A stretch of 64,000 bases of DNA from a virus (lineage: Duplodnaviria; Caudoviricetes), in IMG/VR virus record IMGVR_UViG_3300031867_000008, positions 64,001-128,000 of that record; one strand, given 5' to 3'. Position 1 is the first letter of the stretch. Every line of letters begins with the position of its first letter. The notes below the pieces were generated by a model. That model searched no databases, was not told where the DNA came from, and worked only from the letters and a program-made list of their open reading frames with translations. Shown piece by piece: positions 33,595 to 61,489 of the stretch. The position numbers were made by a program, and so were the translations under genes.

Positions 33595-33959
33595 TTCACA
33601 ATCCTCCCAAAACTCATCATTATCATATGTTTTTCTTGCTTCTTTATAAAATGGAACGTTATCGGAACAGCCGTTATCGCATTCATCGCTCCAATAAATG
33701 TCCATAAAATCTCGATAAAATTCCTGTTTCATTTTTTGTCTCCAAGGTATCTTTAATGTTCTTTGAACCATACTTTTCACCACCTTTATTGATATTTTCA
33801 ACAGTAACTCACGCTATAATCTTTTTAAAATGGTGCAGTAATAACGTAAAGCGTTTGTAAAAGACCAAATTTTACAAACTTTTACAAACGGTATTTCACG
33901 TTATTACTGCACTATTTACACTATATCGCTAAAATTACATCTTTTATCTCTGTAATTAT

Positions 33960-34017
33960 ATTATACACCACAATAAGCATTTTGTCAAGTACTTTTCAAC
34001 AGTCATTGACGATTTTA
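33960..34017 (-). promoter_or_regulatory. Consensus sigma-A promoter with operator-like motif
   Basis: TTGACA (33983-88)-17-TATAAT (33960-65); 35-bp block nearly identical to 52154-52188. Confidence 0.75.
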
Positions 34018-35688
34018 CAATTTGTTAATATTATTAGAAGTAGTTGTCAACGCCATCGGTAAAACAGTACCCAAATAATAATTCTGGTTACTTACAGTTT
34101 TTTCATAGCTCTTTTCACCCTCAAATTCATTGACAATTTTCTGTTCCTCAGAAGTCATATCTTTATAGGTTTTAGTACCATAGTCATTAGGAAGAAAATT
34201 CTTTTTCTTTCCTGCAAAGATATTCCATTTCTTTAACAGTTCTTCATTGGTGAACCACAAATGAATAGTTCCCTTTTTCTTGAACTCAATATCAAAGAAA
34301 GCACAATGTATTTTTTCTCCGTTATAGTTCTTACTGCTCTGATAGCTGCGAATGATCCAATCAACTCTATGCTCTGCTGTAAAGCCACCATTTAAAAATA
34401 TGAGTATCTTTTCTATTTCATCAAGTTTTTCTTCTGCTTTCCACAGATCCCAACTATTACAATACCGAGCATCGAATACACCATAGCAAGGAATAATGAT
34501 TTTCTTATTTAATTTGTAAGCATCATTTGTACACCAACCATTATAATAATGAACGTTACTGCTGTTACTCATGCTGTTTTTATAAGTGAGTTTATCGAAC
34601 TGTTTTAAGATAGCATCTTCCATATTAGTTGACATACGTTTTGAAAGTTCAAGTTGAATTTCTTTAATGTTGCTTAAAGTAAAATCAAATGCTCTGAATT
34701 GTTCTAAGTTTGCTCGAAAATAATCTCTTGTTGCCTGTGTGAGCATAGGAGCAATAGCATCGCTTGAAAACAATATGTTCCAGTATTTAGCTCTAAGTTC
34801 TCTAAGAAATGCGTTGTGTTTTGAATACTTTTCATTATCACTATCACGAGAATTTATGTGTATACCAATCAAAGCGTTGTCACGTTCTCCTTTTGGAATG
34901 ATATTTTCAAACCTATCAAACGTGTCAATTAAACTCAATCCTAAAATACACTCGTCATTGTACTGTTTAAGAACGTTAGCAATTACATCGTTAGTCGCAA
35001 GCTGATAATCGTTGCTCATACTATCATACTTAGGCTTGTATTCTTGCGCTCGATTCATTTTGGTGAACATATCGTAATCATACTCTATTGTAGGAATATC
35101 AATATAAACAAGAGCTATTTCTACATCAGTTTTACGTTCGCTGTCAATGAACTCATCTTGTAAATATTCAATATCAGCGTGATATTCATTTAACTTATTT
35201 ACAAGGTCTTGTCTTATGTTGCTATAAGGATTCCTTAAAGTTTCAGCGTTGAGAATACAAACAATCTGACCGCCAGTTCTGCATAACTCTATTGCTTTGA
35301 GCAAATGCTTATCTCCCTCGATAAAAGGTGGGTTCATAGCAATTAAATCATATCTCGAAAAGGTGTCCCATGTTAAGAAGTCAGCTTGTGTAACATTATA
35401 AGCATTTAGAATTGTTCCACTTATTCTTTCGTCTTTAAGAATAGCTACAAGATTAGGATCGATTTCTACACAGTCAATTGAAACATTCCATTTGGAAGTC
35501 CTGTCATAAAGATCGTACTTTGAACACTTCTCTTTTTCTTCTTTAATAAACGTGTTTTTCAACCCTTTTATTATGTCACCCTTACCAGCAGAAGGTTCAA
35601 GAATTGATTTAACCTTGTGCCATTTTACTTTATTGTACATCTTTTCAACAAGTGATAAAGGTGTAGGATAAAACTGTATTCCAAACAT
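34015..35688 (-). CDS. Adenine methyltransferase fused to DUF4942
   Basis: QFYPTP, LEPSAGKG, MNPPF, FKKKGTIHLWF. Confidence 0.85.
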   Translation of the reverse strand: MFGIQFYPTPLSLVEKMYNKVKWHKVKSILEPSAGKGDIIKGLKNTFIKEEKEKCSKYDLYDRTSKWNVSIDCVEIDPNLVAILKDERISGTILNAYNVTQADFLTWDTFSRYDLIAMNPPFIEGDKHLLKAIELCRTGGQIVCILNAETLRNPYSNIRQDLVNKLNEYHADIEYLQDEFIDSERKTDVEIALVYIDIPTIEYDYDMFTKMNRAQEYKPKYDSMSNDYQLATNDVIANVLKQYNDECILGLSLIDTFDRFENIIPKGERDNALIGIHINSRDSDNEKYSKHNAFLRELRAKYWNILFSSDAIAPMLTQATRDYFRANLEQFRAFDFTLSNIKEIQLELSKRMSTNMEDAILKQFDKLTYKNSMSNSSNVHYYNGWCTNDAYKLNKKIIIPCYGVFDARYCNSWDLWKAEEKLDEIEKILIFLNGGFTAEHRVDWIIRSYQSSKNYNGEKIHCAFFDIEFKKKGTIHLWFTNEELLKKWNIFAGKKKNFLPNDYGTKTYKDMTSEEQKIVNEFEGEKSYEKTVSNQNYYLGTVLPMALTTTSNNINKL

Positions 35689-52297: not shown

Positions 52298-53215
52298 TTA
52301 ATTATTGTTCTGATCGTTCTGAGCGTTCATAGCGTTAATCTTCTGCTCTTTCCACAATTGATACCTTTCTTCATTTACAATTGTAAAATGGCTTATGGTT
52401 GCAGTGACTATCTCTTTGTAACTGATCGTAGAGTTTGTTTTGCTATTGTTTATATCCTCTGTTGCAAACACTCTAAAAAATTCCCCAGCTTGTATTATAT
52501 TTGAAGAATTAAGTTTTATATTTGCTAATTTGTTAAGCATTCTTTTTATCGTTTTAACATTCATTTTTTTTAGAATGTAATATTGGTCATTATAAGACTT
52601 GACCGTTCCTTTTTTCTGATTGTTAGCCCTTACATAAGTTGTTGCAGTTGCCAAGAGCATTATTTTATCTTTTATCAGTTGATTGTCTATCTTTACACCA
52701 TTCGGCAATATAAATGTGTTCGTTATGTTCTTCGCAAAAATATTCGTTGCCTGCTCATCGCTGCAACCGTAGTAGAGAAGATAGCCATATACTTCGGCAA
52801 TCAAAAAATAGCTGGAATAATCGAAATCTCTCTTCTTACCATATGCGGCAATAGCTTTTTTAAATTCATTATATAATTCATTAGGATCAAACACGTAATT
52901 ACTCTTACCCGAATCAATGACTGCCTTTTTTATATCGTTTTCGTTCAATAAATTGTATTGAGGTCTTTTACAAAAAACTCTAAATTCGTTTATGAGTTTT
53001 CGGTCTTTACTATAGCATTCATAACTCACACGGTTTTCTTGAATGAATACCTCGTTAATCTCTTGCTCGTTGAAGTCCAACAAGCTACGTTTCTTATCTT
53101 TTTCGTATCCTGCAAAGATGTTGAATAATGCTTCTGCTCGTTTTTTTCGATGATCCTTTGTCAAATAGTTATTGATAAAATCTTCTTTCAACTCTTTATC
53201 ATAAATTATTTTCAT
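52298..53215 (-). CDS. MrpR/YopR-like repressor (degenerate tyrosine-recombinase fold)
   Basis: YDKELKEDFI...FAGYEKDKKRSLLDFNEQEI N-terminus resembles the SPbeta master-repressor family (recognised from memory). Confidence 0.55.
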   Translation of the reverse strand: MKIIYDKELKEDFINNYLTKDHRKKRAEALFNIFAGYEKDKKRSLLDFNEQEINEVFIQENRVSYECYSKDRKLINEFRVFCKRPQYNLLNENDIKKAVIDSGKSNYVFDPNELYNEFKKAIAAYGKKRDFDYSSYFLIAEVYGYLLYYGCSDEQATNIFAKNITNTFILPNGVKIDNQLIKDKIMLLATATTYVRANNQKKGTVKSYNDQYYILKKMNVKTIKRMLNKLANIKLNSSNIIQAGEFFRVFATEDINNSKTNSTISYKEIVTATISHFTIVNEERYQLWKEQKINAMNAQNDQNNN

Positions 53216-53387
53216 TTTTAAAAGCCTACCTTTCATGTTAAAATGTCGGCAATAATTCTTACACAATTATATAAGTATATACTTATAGTCTTGTTTATAA
53301 TTATATACCAAAATAAGTAACAGTTTATAGATAGACTTTTATATAATGAAAAAGTATGTTTTAAATGCTTGTTAATTGTGTTATAAT

Positions 53388-53792
53388 TCAGCAAATTCCG
53401 ACCTGAACTAATATTTTTTCATTGACAACATTCATTATTTCCGTAGGCAACGCACCAATGCAATTACGAAGTCTGCTTTTGTCAACGGTACGCATCTGTT
53501 CGACCACAAGGGTGGAATCTTTGGTTAATCCACCAGTTCCTTTCATTAAGGAAACGTGTGTAGGTATTGACTTCTTATGTGCAGAGGTTATAGGAACTAC
53601 AAGCACTGTATTACTGTAATAATTTCCTTTATCATTTTGAACAATGAGGACAGGTCTAATTCCCTGCTGCTCAGAACCACACCCCTGACCTAAGTCAGCG
53701 ATATACACCTGTCCTCGCTTAACTCGTTCACAATCCGCAAAGGATAAACTCGTTCTGTTCATAGCGTTTGTTGAAATTGTAGTGTTAGTCAT
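53388..53792 (-). CDS. mazF: MazF/PemK endoribonuclease, no adjacent MazE
   Basis: KRGQVYIADL, GSEQQGIRPVLIVQND, VPITS, EQMRTVDKSRL. Confidence 0.92.
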   Translation of the reverse strand: MTNTTISTNAMNRTSLSFADCERVKRGQVYIADLGQGCGSEQQGIRPVLIVQNDKGNYYSNTVLVVPITSAHKKSIPTHVSLMKGTGGLTKDSTLVVEQMRTVDKSRLRNCIGALPTEIMNVVNEKILVQVGIC

Positions 53793-53834
53793 AACAATTT
53801 TCCTTTCTGTTTAGGAGATTGCAAAATTGAACGC

Positions 53835-54671
53835 TTAACTACAATCCCCTATGGTTGTCTGTTTGTTGTCTAATCTATCTAAAGTGTGAACTATAAGTTT
53901 TTCAGCTTCCTGCAACGTTTCTAAATACTTGTCCTTGTATCTATGTATAACGTTTTTGTTTTCCTCGCTAAGTTCATCAATTTCCCCAAACCCGAGAATG
54001 TACTCCCCTGTTCTGCTGTCCAATAACCCTATATCAATTCCTCCAACAAACGGATGTCTAAGTCCATCTGTAAAATCTTCATTCACAATGAACGCCAACA
54101 CATCATGAACGTTCTTATCTTCAAGTCTTTCCTTTGCATGAGGTGATCTATACCAACCAGATTCTTTCATATTCTGTATTATATACTTCAATATCGGGTA
54201 ATGTTCATATTCGTGAGTGTCAACACCGATGATTACTCGTCCATCTGGCAGTCTAAAAGTATATTCCTTATTTATAGAATCAACCAGTTCATTTGGTATA
54301 TCTTTTCCTATCTTTTTGTACTTTCCATTATGGTAAGTAATGTAAACCGTTGCTAAAAGTACCTGATCGTTATATATTTCAAGAGTTTTGCTTGAATCTG
54401 TTTTGCTTGTAACCTTATATGAGAAGTCACCAAAGTATATTATTGTTCCGACTATATCAGGGAGAAAAACCGATGAATAATCACCTTTGTAAAAAACCAT
54501 GTGTCCGATTCCACCCATCGAAACAGCACTGTAAGATGAATTATAATCATTCCCAATTGTGCCATTTGTACCGTTTGTTTCTACGATAGTTCCATCAGGC
54601 AGTTTAAAAATTGCGCTGTATGAATTATCAAACTCCCTGATAAAAGCCTTGTGAATCGTTTTAAGTTTCAT
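53835..54671 (-). CDS. Hypothetical protein with its own promoter
   Basis: ORF; TTGACA (54749-54)-17-TATAAT (54726-31) upstream. Confidence 0.6.
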   Translation of the reverse strand: MKLKTIHKAFIREFDNSYSAIFKLPDGTIVETNGTNGTIGNDYNSSYSAVSMGGIGHMVFYKGDYSSVFLPDIVGTIIYFGDFSYKVTSKTDSSKTLEIYNDQVLLATVYITYHNGKYKKIGKDIPNELVDSINKEYTFRLPDGRVIIGVDTHEYEHYPILKYIIQNMKESGWYRSPHAKERLEDKNVHDVLAFIVNEDFTDGLRHPFVGGIDIGLLDSRTGEYILGFGEIDELSEENKNVIHRYKDKYLETLQEAEKLIVHTLDRLDNKQTTIGDCS

Positions 54672-54847
54672 TATTTATCAATCCTTTCGTTTCTGTATGT
54701 TTTGAAATTCATCTTTTATGATGATATTATACACCCGTGCGAACTCATTGTCAAGCAAAGTTCACATCATTTCTGCGTTCTGTACTAAATGATGTTCACT
54801 TTTTTAGTCAAAACGCAGAAATTTTATGAAACTTTTTACCGTTTTAG

Positions 54848-55753
54848 TTACTTTATGGAAGAAATGTCAGGCAGTTTATTCTTGTTGCGATAATTGTAAA
54901 CATCACAGATTGCCCTAACTACTCTATCTGTTTTGGTGAATGCGGCACTATCACTGTAAGAAGCCTTTACGATTTCAGCAACAGGCTTTTTGGAAAAGAC
55001 TTTTACAAATTTATTTCTGTCAAACTTATCTCCGTAAAGATGGAAGAACTCACCCATACCACCAATGAACGTTGCGCTGATTGAATCCTTATCATCTTTC
55101 CAAGTTTCTTTCATGAGTTTAAGCATTACGTTTGTGTTCTCTGAGCCTATAAGGTCGTATACCTTTTCAAAAGTGCTGACACACAAGATTCTTCTTTTAC
55201 TGGTTGTCTTATCATAGTTCTTGCTTGTTGCAAGTATATAGCCTGCATCTGCACAAACGTTAATCATGTCTTTTGCCTTGCTATCATATTCTTTACGAGA
55301 AGTCATGTGTTCTTCGGGTGTAAGTTTGGCACAGTTTTCATACTGCTCGTTGTAATAGGCAGCTTCATCATCATAAGTAAGACCTGTGAGAACTCTTGCT
55401 GTAACGATATAATCTTCTCCAAATAACATTCTTAAAACTGTAAGAGTATGCTGTCCATCAACCACATAATACTTACCGTTGCGCTTAGATACTACAATAG
55501 GCTTGACCTTATTCTTGTCGAACTTGCGAATGATTGACTTAATACGACTATCCTTTGTGTTCCTCTGATAAGGTGCGCTTAGAAGCATTTTTGCAGGCAG
55601 TTTTCTTATCTCCATGTCATCGCTCTTAGGGAAGTTGAGTTCTGTTGTCTCAGTTCCACTGTTGACATTAGATGTGGTGTCGTTCTTAATGGGTCTTGTC
55701 CCAGAGGGATCGAACTTTGCACTTACCTTAGTTCCTTTGATTACTGATTTCAT
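54848..55753 (-). CDS. ParB/Srx-fold protein (DUF6551-like)
   Basis: PYQR...IVVSKRNGKYYVVDGQHT. Confidence 0.8.
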   Translation of the reverse strand: MKSVIKGTKVSAKFDPSGTRPIKNDTTSNVNSGTETTELNFPKSDDMEIRKLPAKMLLSAPYQRNTKDSRIKSIIRKFDKNKVKPIVVSKRNGKYYVVDGQHTLTVLRMLFGEDYIVTARVLTGLTYDDEAAYYNEQYENCAKLTPEEHMTSRKEYDSKAKDMINVCADAGYILATSKNYDKTTSKRRILCVSTFEKVYDLIGSENTNVMLKLMKETWKDDKDSISATFIGGMGEFFHLYGDKFDRNKFVKVFSKKPVAEIVKASYSDSAAFTKTDRVVRAICDVYNYRNKNKLPDISSIK

Positions 55754-55792
55754 TTGTAAATCCTCCTAAAATTTTAAAATTTTTATGTCACA

Positions 55793-56779
55793 TCACAACT
55801 CGAAATAGTCAGTGATGTAATTGGCAAATTGTTTAATCTCGTCAAGAAGTTGACAAGCTATTTGTTTACTTTGTATGGTGATTTTTGGCTTACTTTCTTC
55901 TTCGATAGTATTACTTACCGAAAGTATAGCACTCCTGATATTGTCAATGGATAAACGAGCTAAGTCTATATCGTTTAAACTTCTGTCTCGTTCTTCGTCA
56001 TGCAAATCATCAATATAATCTTGAAGTGTTTTTGCTTCCTGTGTAGGACTATCATTTTCATTTATTGTTGCACATCTTTGACTTATCCTATGGATTCTGC
56101 GATAGAACTCACCCTTACAGGAATACTGTTTACGTATTTCCTCACGTTCTTTATCAGTCCATGAGTCAATCTGATTTACGAATCCGTTGCGCCTTATCGT
56201 AGACACCGAAATGTTATCCAACAGAATGTATAAGCATTCCAAATCATCTATTCTGCCCTGTTCTTCCAGTTCCCACATTTTTCTACCCACTAAGATATAA
56301 TCTTCGTAACATTTCGCACACAGCAAATTGTTACTATCGTCTTTCTTGATTGAAAATATATTTGGGAGATAAGGTAACAATTGCTTTCCTGTCAAATACA
56401 TATCATGACCTTTTGGGTATGCTTTGCGGTAGCTTTCATAATACACATAAACAGCTTTGCAAAGTTCTTCCTTTGAACAGTCTCTATGATCGTAGTTCTT
56501 GATTATCTCTACTATAACTTCATCGTCATTTGAGCAATTGCACTTTGTAGCTTTGATTTTTCCAAAGCCCTTAGCACCATTGTTATGAAGCTGTGCAAAC
56601 GCTCTTACAGTATCAATGCCAGCTATGACATTATTATTAGTGTCAACCACTATTGGAGTATAATCGTTTTTATCCTCAGTGAGAGCGTTTATAAGTTCCG
56701 AAATGTCACGTTCATTGTAGATACGCTCATAAATATCGGGTATCTGTATCTCGTCTATCGACAACTTCATGACGCTCAT
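55793..56779 (-). CDS. ParB N-terminal-domain protein (divergent)
   Basis: LSIDEIQIP...PIVVDTNNNVIAG. Confidence 0.6.
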   Translation of the reverse strand: MSVMKLSIDEIQIPDIYERIYNERDISELINALTEDKNDYTPIVVDTNNNVIAGIDTVRAFAQLHNNGAKGFGKIKATKCNCSNDDEVIVEIIKNYDHRDCSKEELCKAVYVYYESYRKAYPKGHDMYLTGKQLLPYLPNIFSIKKDDSNNLLCAKCYEDYILVGRKMWELEEQGRIDDLECLYILLDNISVSTIRRNGFVNQIDSWTDKEREEIRKQYSCKGEFYRRIHRISQRCATINENDSPTQEAKTLQDYIDDLHDEERDRSLNDIDLARLSIDNIRSAILSVSNTIEEESKPKITIQSKQIACQLLDEIKQFANYITDYFEL

Positions 56780-58061
56780 CTCCATTCTCTCCGTTAGTTT
56801 GCACATTATTATCATCTCCAACTGTGTCACTATCACTTACTACACTGTCATTGTCTGTTATATCATCAGTAACATTTGTCACATCAACGTCACTTATTAT
56901 TTCAGTTTCGACTTCTTCTTCTTTGCTTTCGTTCTCGATCTCATTCAGGAAAGAATAATCACCATTCTCCCAATCAAAATCGTCACCCTTGATTTCTTCC
57001 ACAAGATCACACATTTTGTCACCAACCACATTTATAAGAGTTTGACAAATGATGTTTACTCTCGCTTCAACTTTCGTTTTCTTAGTAGTACCTTCCTTAC
57101 AACCTTTTTCAGTGTACTCTTTCTGATACGTTTTAGTAACCCACTTGTAAAGCCATTCCTCAAATTCTTCCTCACTAAATCTGCACTTAGCTACATTATG
57201 GAACAACAGCTTTCCACTTTGAATATTAAGGAATACTTTCATGCACATTACTAACGCTGGAATGTGGAGTTTTTTCAGATAAGATACACATTCTTCATCA
57301 GCAGGATAGTATTCATCGAGCTTGTTAAGTAACAGAGCAAGTTCATCAAGGTCTGAATCCTTGTAATTATCCTTATAATACTCAGCAAACTTTATTATAT
57401 CAGGCGAACCATAAGACTTAGTTTCATAGTCAGTCAACAGCATTAAGCACTCCAAAGCTACACCAAGTTTAGCATCTGTTTTACTGTTTGCAATTGAAGG
57501 AGCGCACCTATCCCAGAAAGGCAGATTAAGAATCTTTTCATCAAACTTCGGAGCAATCTGAGTTCCGAGTGCCACTTTCGCTTTCTGCGTGGGCTTGAAT
57601 GAAGTGCCACTGTTCAGACGAAGGAACTGTTCTTCAAGTTGTTCTTCATCATAATTAGTGATCTGAATTACTTCAAGAGTATAATGCAATATGAGAGTTT
57701 GTATTTTTTTATCAAGTTCGGAAAACTTTTTTCCTGCTACATCGTAAAATTCTCCTTTGTAATAAACAGGCTCAAAGGTCTTAGCCAATTTCCACTCATC
57801 ATCAATGAATGAAAATATTGTACTTGTTCTCTGCTTACCATCAATGATTGTCCAAGTTCGGTCTGTGGGAGTGTCATTCACTATCACCCAGATTGAAGGT
57901 ATAACAAAATTTCTAAGCATACTATCAATAAGAGCGTTCTTCTGCCCCCGATTCCACTGTCCACCATCACGTTGTAAAGCATAATCGTCATTCATTTCAC
58001 CATCATTGTGCATATTATAAAGTGATTCGATTGAATTTCTCACCAGTACAGTCGCTTCCAT
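56727..58061 (-). CDS. DUF262 (GmrS-like ParB/Srx) protein
   Basis: LQR...W...LIDSML, IIDGKQR, FLRLNSG. Confidence 0.85.
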   Translation of the reverse strand: MEATVLVRNSIESLYNMHNDGEMNDDYALQRDGGQWNRGQKNALIDSMLRNFVIPSIWVIVNDTPTDRTWTIIDGKQRTSTIFSFIDDEWKLAKTFEPVYYKGEFYDVAGKKFSELDKKIQTLILHYTLEVIQITNYDEEQLEEQFLRLNSGTSFKPTQKAKVALGTQIAPKFDEKILNLPFWDRCAPSIANSKTDAKLGVALECLMLLTDYETKSYGSPDIIKFAEYYKDNYKDSDLDELALLLNKLDEYYPADEECVSYLKKLHIPALVMCMKVFLNIQSGKLLFHNVAKCRFSEEEFEEWLYKWVTKTYQKEYTEKGCKEGTTKKTKVEARVNIICQTLINVVGDKMCDLVEEIKGDDFDWENGDYSFLNEIENESKEEEVETEIISDVDVTNVTDDITDNDSVVSDSDTVGDDNNVQTNGENGDERHEVVDRRDTDTRYL

Positions 58062-58103
58062 TTTTATTATCTCCTTTCGGGATTTAGGTTTTTCATTGAT
58101 ATA

Positions 58104-58222
58104 ATTATAGCACATCTGCTCATGGTTGTCAACAACCCTGAACATGATTGTTGTGAATAATTTGTAAATTTTAAGCATCAACCAATTAGCAACTTGACAC
58201 AATCTGCATTATAAGATATAAT
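58104..58222. promoter_or_regulatory. Divergent sigma-A promoter pair
   Basis: Minus: TTGACA (58127-32)-17-TATAAT (58104-09); plus: TTGACA (58194-99)-17-TATAAT (58217-22). Confidence 0.8.
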
Positions 58223-58245
58223 ATAATATAAAAGGAAGTGATTAA

Positions 58246-58473
58246 ATGCCGCATGGTCAAATCTCATCTCATAAAACTCGCACAGGAATTACACTTACCA
58301 AAATTTTAAAATCCGAATTAGAATATCTTGCAAAACAAGATCATCGAAGTCTTAATAATTATATGGAAATGGTTCTCACCGATCACGTTGAGCAGCAACG
58401 TAAACTTGGTAAACTGCCAGAGAAGATTGAGCAGGAGAGTTCTGATAATAGTTCCAATAATGATAATTCTTGA
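58246..58473 (+). CDS. Ribbon-helix-helix (Arc/CopG-like) DNA-binding protein
   Basis: TRTGITLTKILKSELEYLAKQDHRSLNNYMEMVL. Confidence 0.8.
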   Translation: MPHGQISSHKTRTGITLTKILKSELEYLAKQDHRSLNNYMEMVLTDHVEQQRKLGKLPEKIEQESSDNSSNNDNS

Positions 58474-58544
58474 CAAAAGAGTTTTTTCGATTCTAATACA
58501 AATGTGAATAATTTGTAAATTTTCTGAAAAACTATTGAAAAGTG

Positions 58545-58573
58545 TTGACAAATTGCTGTTATTAGTGTATACT
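58545..58573 (+). promoter_or_regulatory. Promoter of type III TA cassette 1
   Basis: TTGACA-17-TATACT. Confidence 0.8.
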
Positions 58574-58592
58574 AATATTAGGAAGAATACAC

Positions 58593-58763
58593 CTTCCGAG
58601 AACAACGGCGAGAATATTGTTCATGTGTATGTTTGGTCTCCGAGAGCAACGGGACTTGAATTTAGAATATTGCTCATGTTAGATGTTTAGTCTCCGCGAA
58701 TGACGGGACTTGAATTTAGAATATCATTCATTATTGAAGCTCTATGATTTTCATAGGGCTTCA
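58593..58763 (+). ncRNA. Type III antitoxin array 1 (about 2.7 x 54-nt pseudoknot repeats) plus terminator
   Basis: Loop/stem-2 covariation gaacaa/ttgttc, gagcaa/ttgctc, gaatga/tcattc; terminator hairpin 58735-58763. Confidence 0.88.
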
Positions 58764-58786
58764 TTCTATAATAAGGGGAAACGTAT

Positions 58787-59311
58787 ATGAAAATTATTTC
58801 TGTGACAGATGATCTGTTCGATTTACTAAATGACCAAGAATTATTACATAATAAAAATCGTAGACCTCATGTACTCATATTAAAATTAACGTATAAAGAA
58901 ACAAAAATAAACTTTGCTGTACCATTCAGATCGAATATTCCACCAAATGCAAACAAATTATTTTATTTTTCAATGCCACCTCGTCCAAGTACCAAACCGA
59001 AATATCGTCATGGATTACACTATATAAAAGCGTTTCCCATAACAAGTGAATATTATACTAAGTGCAACATTGATGATAGTAAGTATTATGAAACTATTAG
59101 AAAAATAGCTAATTAAAAACTAACAGAAATAATACATGGTATGCAGCATTATTTAGAATTATATGAGCAAGGTTTACGAGAAAAATATTGTGTTGATATT
59201 GATAGCGCAATAAAAAAATTAAACATAACTCTTTTTAATAATGCTCAATACACAATACCCAATTCTGTTGCAGCTATTTCGGAAACTGATAATTCCAATA
59301 ATTTAATATAA
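58787..59311 (+). pseudogene. Type III TA toxin (TenpN-like) with in-frame TAA at 59114-59116
   Basis: RRPH...FAVPFRSNI...GLHYIKAFPI; frame stays open for 64 codons after the stop. Confidence 0.75.
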
Positions 59312-59350
59312 TGAATTTTGTGAATAAATTGTAAATATTTTTTAAAAGTA

Positions 59351-59379
59351 TTGACAACTGGTAGATTATAATGTATAAT
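59351..59379 (+). promoter_or_regulatory. Promoter of type III TA cassette 2
   Basis: TTGACA-17-TATAAT. Confidence 0.85.
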
Positions 59380-59407
59380 AAATATTAGAAAGAGGAAACT
59401 CTATCTG

Positions 59408-59525
59408 TTGTCGCACCACGATAAGCGACTAATAAATTGTCGTGCGCTAAATGTTTTGTCGCATCATAGTACGCGACTAATAAATTACTATGTGCTAATT
59501 TGAAGCCCTGTTCGCAGGGCTTTTC
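59408..59525 (+). ncRNA. cptI: CptI-like antitoxin array (2 x 48 nt) plus terminator
   Basis: Stem 1 gtcgc/gcgac; stem 2 cacgata/tgtcgtg and catagta/tactatg; terminator aagccctg-ttcg-cagggctttt. Confidence 0.88.
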
Positions 59526-59541
59526 TTTTAGGTGAATAGTC

Positions 59542-59994
59542 ATGTTTGCTGGAGAATTTTACTTTATTGATAAATCATACGCTGAAAAATACAGCAATGG
59601 AGAAATAATGATTAACCCAAAACGTCCTTATATGTTCGCTTTTGTTCAGAATGGATTGTTTTGGTTTATACCTATCACTTCCAAGGTCGAAAAGTTTGAA
59701 ACCATTCGTAATCATAAAATTATAAAATATAAAAAGTGCGACACTATTGATTTTTCTTATGTGTTGGGGCATAAGAAAGCTATTCTAATTCAGAACATGG
59801 TTCCTATAAGATATGAATACATAAAAGAACAGTACACAGACGATCAAGACAATCCGATCAGACTACCTTTAAAAGACGAGCGCAGAATTATCAATAACGC
59901 CAAGAAAATTCTTGCACTTCATCGAAAAAATCCAGTTTATATTTATGGAAATGTGCTTGAAATAGAAAAAGATTTCAATACATTACCTATATAA
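59542..59994 (+). CDS. cptN: CptN-family type III toxin
   Basis: GEFYFID...KRPY...WFIPITSKVEKF...CDTIDF...LIQNMVP. Confidence 0.88.
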   Translation: MFAGEFYFIDKSYAEKYSNGEIMINPKRPYMFAFVQNGLFWFIPITSKVEKFETIRNHKIIKYKKCDTIDFSYVLGHKKAILIQNMVPIRYEYIKEQYTDDQDNPIRLPLKDERRIINNAKKILALHRKNPVYIYGNVLEIEKDFNTLPI

Positions 59995-60028
59995 ATATGA
60001 ACAAATTGTAAATATTTTCTAAAAATAG

Positions 60029-60057
60029 TTGACAAATCATATACTTTGGTGTATAAT
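60029..60057 (+). promoter_or_regulatory. Promoter of type III TA cassette 3
   Basis: TTGACA-17-TATAAT. Confidence 0.85.
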
Positions 60058-60093
60058 AAAAATGTAAGGAAATACCTTTACTATATCGCTGAT

Positions 60094-60243
60094 GATGATG
60101 TGTGACGGTTCTGACACATCGGTAAAATAAAAATTGACCGAGCGTAGATGATGTGTGACGGTTCTGACACATCGGTAAAATAAAAATTGACCGAGCGATG
60201 AATTACTTTGAGTGAGGTTGACGTTTGTTGACCTCACTCTTTT
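60094..60243 (+). ncRNA. tenpI: TenpI-like antitoxin array (2 repeats, 53-nt period) plus terminator
   Basis: 51-nt exact duplication; stem 1 gatgtgt/acacatc, stem 2 cggtt/gaccg; terminator hairpin 60210-60239. Confidence 0.9.
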
Positions 60244-60258
60244 ATTAGGAATGATTCT

Positions 60259-60855
60259 ATGAACTACAATTTTGACTATGAGGTTTACAAACTCTCTGCA
60301 AAATTCTACAATGATTATCCACACAACCAATACCCTGAAATATTGGAAAAGCCCACAAGAAGATACAACTGTATTTTAGTAGACATAAACACAGATTATT
60401 TTATTTGTCTGCCTTTTCGTTCTGACATGAGACACCAGAATGGTTATAGTTTTAAGAAGTCCAAAAGAAGTAAACACCATAGATCAGGAATTGATTATTC
60501 AAAAATGGTCATAATCAAAGATACAAAGTATCTTGAAAAAGGTGCAATCGTTGATACCGATGAATATAAGGAAATGGTTCTAAATATCAATACCATTGTT
60601 AATGATTCCGTTGAGTATTTATTGAAATACATCAATCATAAAAAGGGAATTTCTGTACTACATGAAAGACAATACCAGAGATTATATGGCTTATCTTCAC
60701 TGCCTTATTTTGACTTAATCATAATTGAGCCTGATATAAACAGCTCATATAAAATAAATGATAAAAGCAGTTCGACAAACAATAATAATGTTTCTCCATA
60801 CGCTCTTGCTGTATCGGTAGAACAAAATCAAAGCACATCTTCAAAGTTTACATAA
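60259..60855 (+). CDS. tenpN: TenpN-family type III toxin
   Basis: LSAKFYNDYP...EILEKPTRRY...CLPFRS...SGIDYSKMVII. Confidence 0.88.
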   Translation: MNYNFDYEVYKLSAKFYNDYPHNQYPEILEKPTRRYNCILVDINTDYFICLPFRSDMRHQNGYSFKKSKRSKHHRSGIDYSKMVIIKDTKYLEKGAIVDTDEYKEMVLNINTIVNDSVEYLLKYINHKKGISVLHERQYQRLYGLSSLPYFDLIIIEPDINSSYKINDKSSSTNNNNVSPYALAVSVEQNQSTSSKFT

Positions 60856-60905
60856 CCTATTTTAAATAACTTATCGACATCTCCTAAATTCTAAACCTTT
60901 TTTTG

Positions 60906-60938
60906 AGAAAGAGTGTATCTTCGGGTATGCTCTTTCTC
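60906..60938 (+). terminator. Terminator closing the TA island
   Basis: agaaagagtgtatc-ttcg-ggtatgctctttct. Confidence 0.75.
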
Positions 60939-61069
60939 TGTTTATAAATATATCATGTTCAAAGATGATAGTCAATGCAAAATATTTTCCAATAAGTAAA
61001 CCAAAAGCAGGAACCACAAAGCTCCTGCTTTTTATTATAGTTTATGTTTTTTATAGTTTAACGAGCCGT

Positions 61070-61261: not shown

Positions 61262-61489
61262 TTACAGTGTCACAACATTTGCTAATTTATTTTTTCTCTC
61301 ACTATTTCCATTCCAAACAGCAATAGCGCCGAGTATTGTAGACCTTGCTTCACTGTTCTTAGCTACTGTTTGCTGACAATTTTGACAGCGTATTATGTAG
61401 AGATTTTTATTATCTCCTACGGTTTCTAATTTTCCTTTGCCACCACAAAAAGGACAGGATTTTATATTATAGTATACCATGTTTGCCAT
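61262..61489 (-). CDS. Lar-family (restriction alleviation-like) Zn-ribbon protein
   Basis: IKSCPFCGG...CQNC...AIAVWN. Confidence 0.7.
   Translation of the reverse strand: MANMVYYNIKSCPFCGGKGKLETVGDNKNLYIIRCQNCQQTVAKNSEARSTILGAIAVWNGNSERKNKLANVVTL

Follow-up and report, generated by a model that had tools for sequence, protein, structure and literature searches.

Three type III toxin-antitoxin cassettes of different kinds stand in tandem on a large phage, each behind a copy of the same promoter module

Toxin-antitoxin (TA) systems of type III are textbook bacterial abortive-infection modules, and the copies carried by phages have been catalogued only recently. Here we describe an island of three such cassettes on a 64,000-nucleotide (nt) stretch of phage DNA, hereafter the window, which comprises bases 64001-128000 of the IMG/VR record IMGVR_UViG_3300031867_000008 (140,956 bp, direct terminal repeats, rated complete). 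The island lies at positions 58503-60938 on the plus strand, and its cassettes, each of a different kind, are arranged head to tail, the toxin gene of the first being interrupted. A type III locus is recognized by a promoter, tandem repeats, a Rho-independent terminator and a toxin gene (Blower 2012, as restated in PMC12283969). Members borne by phages or prophages include viral tenpN (PMC12283969) and a toxIN locus of a Clostridium botulinum phage (PMC3401426). As far as the available portions of those reports extend, they concern single loci, whereas here three families are joined, with duplicated promoter modules and one inactivated toxin. The papers returned by our literature searches contain no mention of cassette stacking in type III TA; the kind of system and its phage-borne members are known, and it is the stacked arrangement that is rarely seen.

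Compared with the closest described systems, the third cassette resembles TenpIN of Photorhabdus and E. coli, for which a cryo-EM structure (PMC13682666) and a survey of bacterial and viral loci (PMC12283969) are available. It has the promoter, two repeats, terminator and toxin of that system, the P-x-R-S and G-x-D-x-x-K motifs, an H-type pseudoknot with an A-rich loop, a C-terminal extension of the sort noted for some TenpN proteins, and a score above the NCBIfam cut-off; it differs in its identical 53-nt repeats, its phage-specific promoter module and its place in a stack. The second cassette is like CptIN of Eubacterium rectale (4RMO, PMC4627078) in having its repeats, each 45-48 nt long and with two stems joined by an A-rich linker, in about two copies. 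In contrast to that locus it is phage-borne, its repeats differ by a fully compensated stem 2, and its active site reads T-S-K where 4RMO has S-S-R. With ToxIN of Pectobacterium atrosepticum and with AbiQ (2XD0, 4ATO, 4GLK) the island shares the operon logic and the predicted fold of all three toxins, and the corresponding slot of a sister phage, described below, contains a ToxN-family cassette headed by a matching promoter module. However, the window itself is without a ToxN-family member, and its RNAs are longer (48-54 vs 36 nt) and present in fewer copies.

All three cassettes follow one layout, in which a sigma-70-type promoter is followed by a pseudoknot RNA array, a hairpin and a gene for a toxin of predicted ToxN fold. 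This is the type III layout throughout, with a weak U tract at the hairpin of cassette 1. Just upstream stands a fourth co-oriented unit (58154-58473), an RHH gene behind a matching promoter module. The features are as follows.

58154-58222, plus strand: promoter module 0 (16-nt box 58154-58169, -35 at 58194, -10 ending at 58222; consensus)
58246-58473, plus strand: RHH (Arc-like) gene of unit 0, 75 aa (PHROG Arc-like repressor, E 1.2e-5)
58505-58573, plus strand: promoter module 1 (box 58505-58520, TTGACA-17-TATACT; promoter 58545-58573 scores 11/12)
58590-58735, plus strand: antitoxin array 1, three non-identical units (one short, two long), CCG-N7-CGG...AGAAUAU-N7' pseudoknot
58735-58763, plus strand: hairpin 1, 13 bp, putative attenuator with a weak U tract (-18 kcal/mol), between array 1 and toxin 1
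58787-59311, plus strand: toxin 1, divergent TenpN-like, predicted ToxN fold (codons 1-109, TAA at 59114-59116, homologous frame to 59311)
59321-59379, plus strand: promoter module 2 (box 59321-59336; promoter 59351-59379 scores 12/12)
59407-59502, plus strand: antitoxin array 2, cptI type, two 48-nt units
59502-59531, plus strand: terminator or attenuator 2, with its hairpin at 59502-59523
59542-59994, plus strand: CptN toxin, 150 aa (NF047359, 124.6 bits)
59998-60057, plus strand: promoter module 3 (box 59998-60013; promoter 60029-60057 scores 12/12)
60094-60199, plus strand: antitoxin array 3, tenpI type, two identical 53-nt units, H-type pseudoknot
60210-60239, plus strand: terminator or attenuator 3
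60259-60855, plus strand: TenpN toxin, 198 aa, with a core of ~155 aa and a disordered C-terminal tail (NF047358, 152.2 bits)
60905-60938, plus strand: terminator closing the island, facing the terminator at 61003-61032 of minus-strand genes

The initial annotation, made from the sequence alone, had proposed three different type III cassettes in tandem at this place, and that proposal is borne out: promoters, arrays, hairpins and open reading frames are all present, and the consensus promoter assigned to each unit scores as listed. Its three arrays are indeed unrelated in sequence, with units of 48 and 53 nt in the second and third, but the 54-nt period given for the first is really a set of three non-identical units. 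The terminators it placed in cassettes 2 and 3 are good ones, while that of cassette 1 is a 13-bp stem with a poor U tract. Its toxin labels also stand, CptN and TenpN lying above the NCBIfam cut-offs and toxin 1 being divergent and TenpN-like, although it overlooked the nonsense codon in toxin 1 and made no mention of the RHH unit ahead of the three cassettes. A scan of the 141-kb genome revealed no other arrays or toxins of these families. The RHH gene gave a weak RelB-like NCBIfam match and no Pfam match.

NCBIfam profiles were needed to recognize the toxins; with Pfam and PADLOC, cassette 2 gave a weak ToxN/AbiQ signal and the other two cassettes none. Both listed scores exceed the cut-off of 90 bits, placing the second and third cassettes in CptIN and TenpIN, and the CptN match covers model positions 1-149 of 150. 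Against NF047358, toxin 1 reached 35.6 bits as called (58787-59116) and 40.8 bits when read through the TAA to 59311, short of the same cut-off. The motif P-x-[RT]-S can be read in the translations of all three toxins, and it is in this stretch that the catalytic residues of ToxN, CptN and TenpN sit (PMC13682666). By sequence alone, CptN matched 4RMO, the solved CptN of E. rectale, at E 3.5e-13. In an alignment of 24 TenpN relatives the invariant residues R34, P52, R54, H59, G77, D79 and K82 match the R, P-x-R, H and G-x-D-x-x-K positions that PMC12283969 gives. PDB sequence searches with the TenpN and cassette-1 profiles yielded nothing useful, and Foldseek alone was weak for the TenpN model; a second structure aligner resolved it, with Z 12.4 to Bacillus thuringiensis ToxN (4ATO), 11.5 to AbiQ and 10.1 to CptN, and at most 6.6 to MazF. 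For the cassette-1 clade we modeled an intact relative, and the top five Foldseek matches were the five solved type III toxins (TM 0.60-0.67). Together this points to a ToxN/Kid-like endoribonuclease fold in all three toxins. The lack of a ToxN fold, which the initial annotation had named as evidence against itself, was examined, and the fold was found to be present, as judged from the 4RMO match, the TenpN model and the model of the cassette-1 relative. In the TenpN model the core is confident and residues 160-198 form a disordered tail. This tail (60736-60855) of ~40 aa is rich in Asn and Ser, with pLDDT <50, and relatives that are 85-93% identical are also 198 aa long.

Toxin 1 carries an in-frame TAA at codon 110 (59114-59116), and homology continues in the same frame to 59311. 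Because a 174-aa relative that is 95% identical to toxin 1 (P0040) has Glu at this codon, and all 17 of the relatives, P0040 included, are open through that column, toxin 1 is best read as a recent nonsense allele from which the C-terminal helices of the model have been lost. With this toxin cut short, at most two of the cassettes could be complete killers. The Logan assembly of the probable source run shows no differences at 58100-60123, which it holds in one 10.5-kb contig at an even depth of 37.7, so the TAA is not an artefact of one assembler, though both assemblies drew on the same reads. A metagenome scan with P0040 gave no matches. Members of the cassette-1 clade are ~150 aa long and share invariant R-P, F-A-x-P-x-R-S-N-I and H-G-L-H-Y-x-K motifs; the names of the matched clusters say only 'hypothetical protein'. 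In profile-profile comparison the clade gave a probability of 96.7% with TenpN and 90.6% with CptN, vs 18.8% between TenpN and CptN. By this measure it is a related but separate, unnamed clade between the two, and because it falls below the NF047358 cut-off we do not file it as TenpIN, although we predict that it works like TenpIN. Among viral contigs, close relatives of the toxins came to light in alignment-based scans and not in scans with single proteins.

The three arrays match no Rfam family. Tandem Repeats Finder (TRF) reported array 1 with a period of 54 nt, 2.1 copies and 85% match. In its three actual units stem 2 is different each time and fully compensated (GAACAA/TTGTTC, GAGCAA/TTGCTC and GAATGA/TCATTC). 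The pseudoknot forms between a short CCG...CGG hairpin, which contributes its loop, and the six bases after a conserved AGAAUAU. In 36 units of the clade, stem 2 is 99.5% paired, five of its six pairs covary with up to six pair types per position, and none of 500 shuffles did as well. Short and long units alternate in the arrays of this clade, and since they are non-identical, TRF usually misses them; such 'non-identical repeats' are now described for many tenpIN systems (PMC13682666, PMC12283969), with which the cassette-1 arrays agree. Array 2, which TRF misses, was read off the sequence; a structure scan recovered unit 1 and a motif search both units. Its stem 1 is GTCGC/GCGAC; unit 1 has CACGAT/GTCGTG as stem 2, and unit 2 has CATAGT/ACTATG, again compensated. 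Among cptI relatives both stems vary, with 11 different stem-1 sequences, and stem 2 is perfect in 21 of 22 units, where the best of the partner-shuffled controls reached 4.77 out of 5. Array 3 (TRF: 53 nt x 2.0, 100% match) has a 7-bp stem 1 and a stem 2 of CGGUU/GACCG, then an A-rich loop of the kind also present in the published tenpI and cptI structures. A repeat sharing the consensus of array 3 (TRF, 51-55 nt, ~2 copies) lies upstream at 66 of the 87 TenpN loci scanned, among them that of the window. In 93 distinct tenpI units 99.5% of the cells are paired, stem 1 is 99.8% paired and six of its seven pairs are doubly compensated, a result equaled by 0 of 500 shuffles, and the slid controls collapse; the invariant stem 2 is beyond the reach of covariation. 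The repeat units thus fold as pseudoknot RNAs, as had been proposed from the start, with compensatory changes in tenpI stem 1, cassette-1 stem 2 and both cptI stems. Different stems in neighboring units would reduce both mispairing between units and recombination between DNA repeats. Mean column identity is 85% for tenpI RNA (93 units) vs 46% for TenpN protein (24 proteins), and one tenpI unit from Ruminococcus matches that of the phage at all but 1 of 52 positions, against 57% identity between the toxins.

We then asked how rare such stacking is. Among 193 loci around relatives of TenpN, the cassette-1 type and CptN, 14 hold a second type III toxin, of which two (L179 and L180) represent one frameshifted gene split in two. 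The other 12 amount to four lineages, all doublets: an Oscillospiraceae contig (L025), a prophage (L124), a viral contig (L167) and a phage lineage (L182-L192). In the last, on phage contigs of 65-110 kb, the promoters of two tandem CptIN-type cassettes (L182:4780-6300) share ~45 near-identical nt, and this lineage is, going by its sequence, a second example, independent of the first, in which stacking goes together with duplication of the promoter module. In the prophage-like region L124 (positions 1450-2950 of that locus, minus strand; bacterial genome G199) a LexA/CI-like repressor, a TenpIN-like cassette, CptIN, a tyrosine integrase and a structured RNA gene follow one another. Behind each of its two toxin genes lies a direct repeat of ~45 nt, as if recombination at this sequence had brought in the second cassette. 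Across ~400 Clostridia genomes CptIN occurs in 15, TenpIN in 13 and ToxN in 32, with one tight tandem, and ToxN pseudogenes are common. No other triple appeared among the 193 loci or these genomes, only doublets, which agrees with the initial view that type III loci are usually single.

A 16-nt box, TGAAYAAWTTGTAAAT, opens the RHH unit and all three cassettes, and these four are the sole exact copies in the 141-kb genome. From box to promoter (TTGACA-17-TATAAT) the spacing is 24, 24, 14 and 15 nt in the order of the units, a difference of about one helical turn. The likeness of the modules extends across an A/T-rich tract, and an AGGAA-like stretch follows the -10 element in every unit. Scanning ~1 Mb around other type III loci showed the module to be absent from all of them with the sole exception of the sister phage, where it heads ToxIN. 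In contrast, a scan of IMG/VR located 33 stretches with it on ~30 phage contigs, most of them large, where the genes behind it encode a DNA polymerase, a deoxyribonucleotidase, two HNH endonucleases, two phrog_20187 proteins and unknowns (L203, L213, L229, L231, L210, L224). Judging from this distribution, the module is a phage promoter class fitted onto the cassettes rather than a feature of type III loci, and the box with its promoter appears to be a class so far undescribed.

We considered other roles for the box. As a general host UP element it was rejected: box and -35 together turned up in only 4 of 401 Clostridia genomes, and no other type III locus of the ~1 Mb scan has them. Binding by the RHH protein is weakened by the sister phage, which has the box before ToxIN and lacks an RHH homologue. 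An operator for the MrpR-like repressor of this phage is not supported either, a homologue being detectable in 1 of 10 other box-bearing phage records. The minus strand has a fifth box-like site at 34028, with two mismatches, and a perfect TTGACA-17-TATAAT follows 24 nt later; next (33790-34030, minus strand) come a leader of ~150 nt, which contains a long hairpin and repeated TTTGTAAAA words, and then a 148-aa gene.

The slot itself differs between relatives. The nearest, a sister phage (IMGVR_UViG_3300033463_000027, a 139.5-kb record whose DUF262 protein is 63-67% identical), has the same flanking genes around other cargo: a DUF6017 gene, a ToxN-family cassette (125 bits, two ~37-nt units, identical box), an HTH gene and a MazF/PemK toxin. 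The region of another relative ends in a MazF gene. In a contig from another cattle-gut study the end of the RHH gene runs into a box-3-like module and then cptI-CptN-tenpI-TenpN, leaving it without cassette 1. An 11.6-kb contig from another study leads from the RHH gene to box 3 and then, with or without further sequence in between, to the final terminator, and a further contig has cassette 1 followed by a box-3-like module. A contig of 212 nt at depth 6, from another study, joins 60245 to 60792, so that tenpI is kept and 546 nt of TenpN are skipped. These joins fit a recombination hotspot in which cassettes would be gained and lost between promoter modules, since the breakpoints sit at or near the modules. 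The hotspot suggested in the initial annotation is thereby strengthened, both by the ToxIN and MazF cargo of the sister phage and by the contigs from other samples. Among phage variants CptN differences are mostly synonymous (13 of the 22 listed, vs 32% expected). Also in the sister phage (L128:6000-8000, minus strand), an HTH_26 gene is preceded by a consensus promoter that belongs to it, by ~130 nt of leader and by a hairpin resembling a terminator, a layout like that of a type III cassette except that the downstream gene is a regulator.

Both flanks of the island are on the minus strand. To the left, divergent from it, is an operon-like gene run (52298-58202, minus strand) in the order MrpR-like protein, orphan MazF/PemK toxin (106 bits), unknown gene, DUF6551, a weakly ParB-like protein and DUF262/GmrSD_N (NsnA-like). 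No MazE is evident in this run. The run looks like an SPbeta-type lysogeny-control or defence cluster. The initial annotation was therefore right that the island is transcribed against its surroundings, but the upstream neighbors are lysogeny-control-like, not lytic. Its description of the island as lysogen-expressed is unsupported, the promoter class being one that drives DNA polymerase, deoxyribonucleotidase and HNH genes in other phages. Its view of the phage as temperate held up better. Because the phage has a large serine recombinase (616 aa; Resolvase, Recombinase and Zn-ribbon domains) and an MrpR-like protein, and because a distant relative whose DUF262 protein is 30% identical is classed as a provirus, it looks temperate and SPbeta-like, which is reasonable and not proven. 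SPbeta has MrpR and its repeated operator SPBRE (PMC10516654), and the two are alike as large temperate phages with a serine integrase, an MrpR-like protein and a short conserved element that recurs in a few promoter regions, including that of a toxin gene. They differ in that the match to the N-terminal MrpR domain is just below the cut-off in this phage (25.3 bits, cut-off 27).

Given this, we favor, at slightly better than even confidence, the reading that the island consists of working abortive-infection or exclusion and addiction modules that an SPbeta-like temperate phage has gathered in a cassette slot. The anatomy, the family membership, the fold, the RNA covariation and the differing joins in other samples are those set out above; for expression, toxicity, processing, trigger and benefit we infer the following course. 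A slot beside lysogeny-control genes would have collected three independent type III modules and a small RHH gene, and recombination at the copies of the promoter module probably built the stack up and also pares it down. In each cassette a very strong constitutive-type promoter would drive a short pseudoknot RNA array, with the hairpin letting only some transcripts pass into the toxin gene. The ToxN-fold endoribonuclease would cut the array to single units, which would in turn bind and silence it. Once cassette transcription stops, whether because a superinfecting phage shuts it down or because the prophage is lost, the short-lived RNA would decay and the toxin would cleave cell and phage RNA, resulting in abortive infection or exclusion of rival phages and in addiction to the prophage. 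No cross-neutralization is expected among three families with unrelated RNAs, and stacking would for this reason widen the range of triggers and hamper escape. Cassette 1 would now yield only RNA and a truncated protein. Placement supports the same reading, since the TenpIN-CptIN doublet of prophage L124 likewise sits between repressor and integrase.

Several points weigh against it. No RNA run is among the public runs listed as containing the stretch, the 'metatranscriptomic' run X23 being probably DNA. The cassettes may follow the lytic programme instead of being lysogen-expressed, because the module heads DNA polymerase, deoxyribonucleotidase and HNH genes elsewhere. A broken toxin 1 behind an intact promoter and array, like the contig join at 60245-60792 that keeps tenpI, would fit selection on the RNAs and not on the toxins. 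Cross-neutralization within the tenpI/TenpN subfamily, host toxins included, is conceivable because tenpI is far more conserved than TenpN. The same observations, among them the intact hairpin of cassette 1 and the near-identical Ruminococcus unit, indirectly favor the main rival, an RNA anti-defence library such as the initial annotation had also raised; we hold it possible though unlikely. In it, arrays expressed early in the lytic cycle from the phage's own promoter class would swamp the cell with antitoxin RNA and keep host TenpN, CptN and cassette-1-clade toxins silent after host transcription is shut off, and the phage toxins would survive chiefly to process the arrays or be on their way out. 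Phage PhiTE reportedly escapes ToxIN by expressing pseudo-ToxI repeats, and it offers a precedent as a phage with antitoxin-like RNA repeats; there, however, the repeats come without a toxin, while here the cassettes are complete except cassette 1. An RNA decoy needs no toxin, whereas defence or addiction needs complete cassettes, and two of the three toxins are intact with their catalytic motifs kept. The synonymous excess in CptN also speaks against a decoy library, and the TenpN-deleted contig is just 212 nt long, at depth 6. Rather unlikely, in our estimate, is an exchangeable counter-defence library of antitoxin RNAs, in which arrays of several type III families would be expressed in infection from one phage promoter module to silence host abortive-infection toxins, with cassettes swapped at the promoter modules to track the host toxin repertoire and toxins as dispensable passengers lost stepwise, as by the nonsense codon of cassette 1 and the apparent TenpN deletion in another sample.

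The cassettes could instead be selfish cargo, addiction modules that spread among phages and prophages through the hotspot and are hard to lose but bring phage and host no defence benefit, with cassette 1 decaying. The contig joins in other samples, which fit gain and loss of cassettes, the nonsense mutation, the MazF-type toxins in the slot of relatives and the frequency of ToxN pseudogenes in the genome survey would all agree with this. We nevertheless find it distinctly doubtful, as each cassette is fitted with the phage's own promoter module, which suggests domestication, and as the CptN variants differ mostly at synonymous sites. Highly improbable is an assembly artefact, in which different strain variants would have been fused where the promoter modules repeat. 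In its favor, the record was assembled from a metagenome, the modules have identical 16-20-nt stretches in common, and several structural variants coexist in cattle-gut samples. However, those stretches are shorter than the usual assembly word length, the second assembler recovered the single contig described above from the same reads, and a contig from another study spans CptIN and TenpIN in one piece (59401-60904).

The finding leaves the known type III mechanism unchanged. What it adds to the catalogue is a stack of three families with a shared phage promoter module, a hotspot in which a fourth family stands behind the same module in a sister phage, signs suggesting natural variants in which cassettes are gained or lost and toxins inactivated, and an unnamed, intermediate toxin-RNA clade with a covariation-backed pseudoknot. 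The island thus offers a natural system for asking whether phages turn such modules on their rivals, rely on them to be retained or deploy them as RNA decoys that counter the defence of the host, what sets RNA-toxin specificity, and how defence cassettes move between phages.

The best-matching public run containing the stretch is a bovine gut metagenome, and the phage further encodes a tail protein, an endolysin, a DNA polymerase and RecJ-, DnaB- and NrdD-like proteins. Adjoining the island on its right side is a small zinc-ribbon gene (61262-61489, minus strand) of the Lar restriction-alleviation family (PF14354, 36 bits), so that counter-defence and TA genes are neighbors here.

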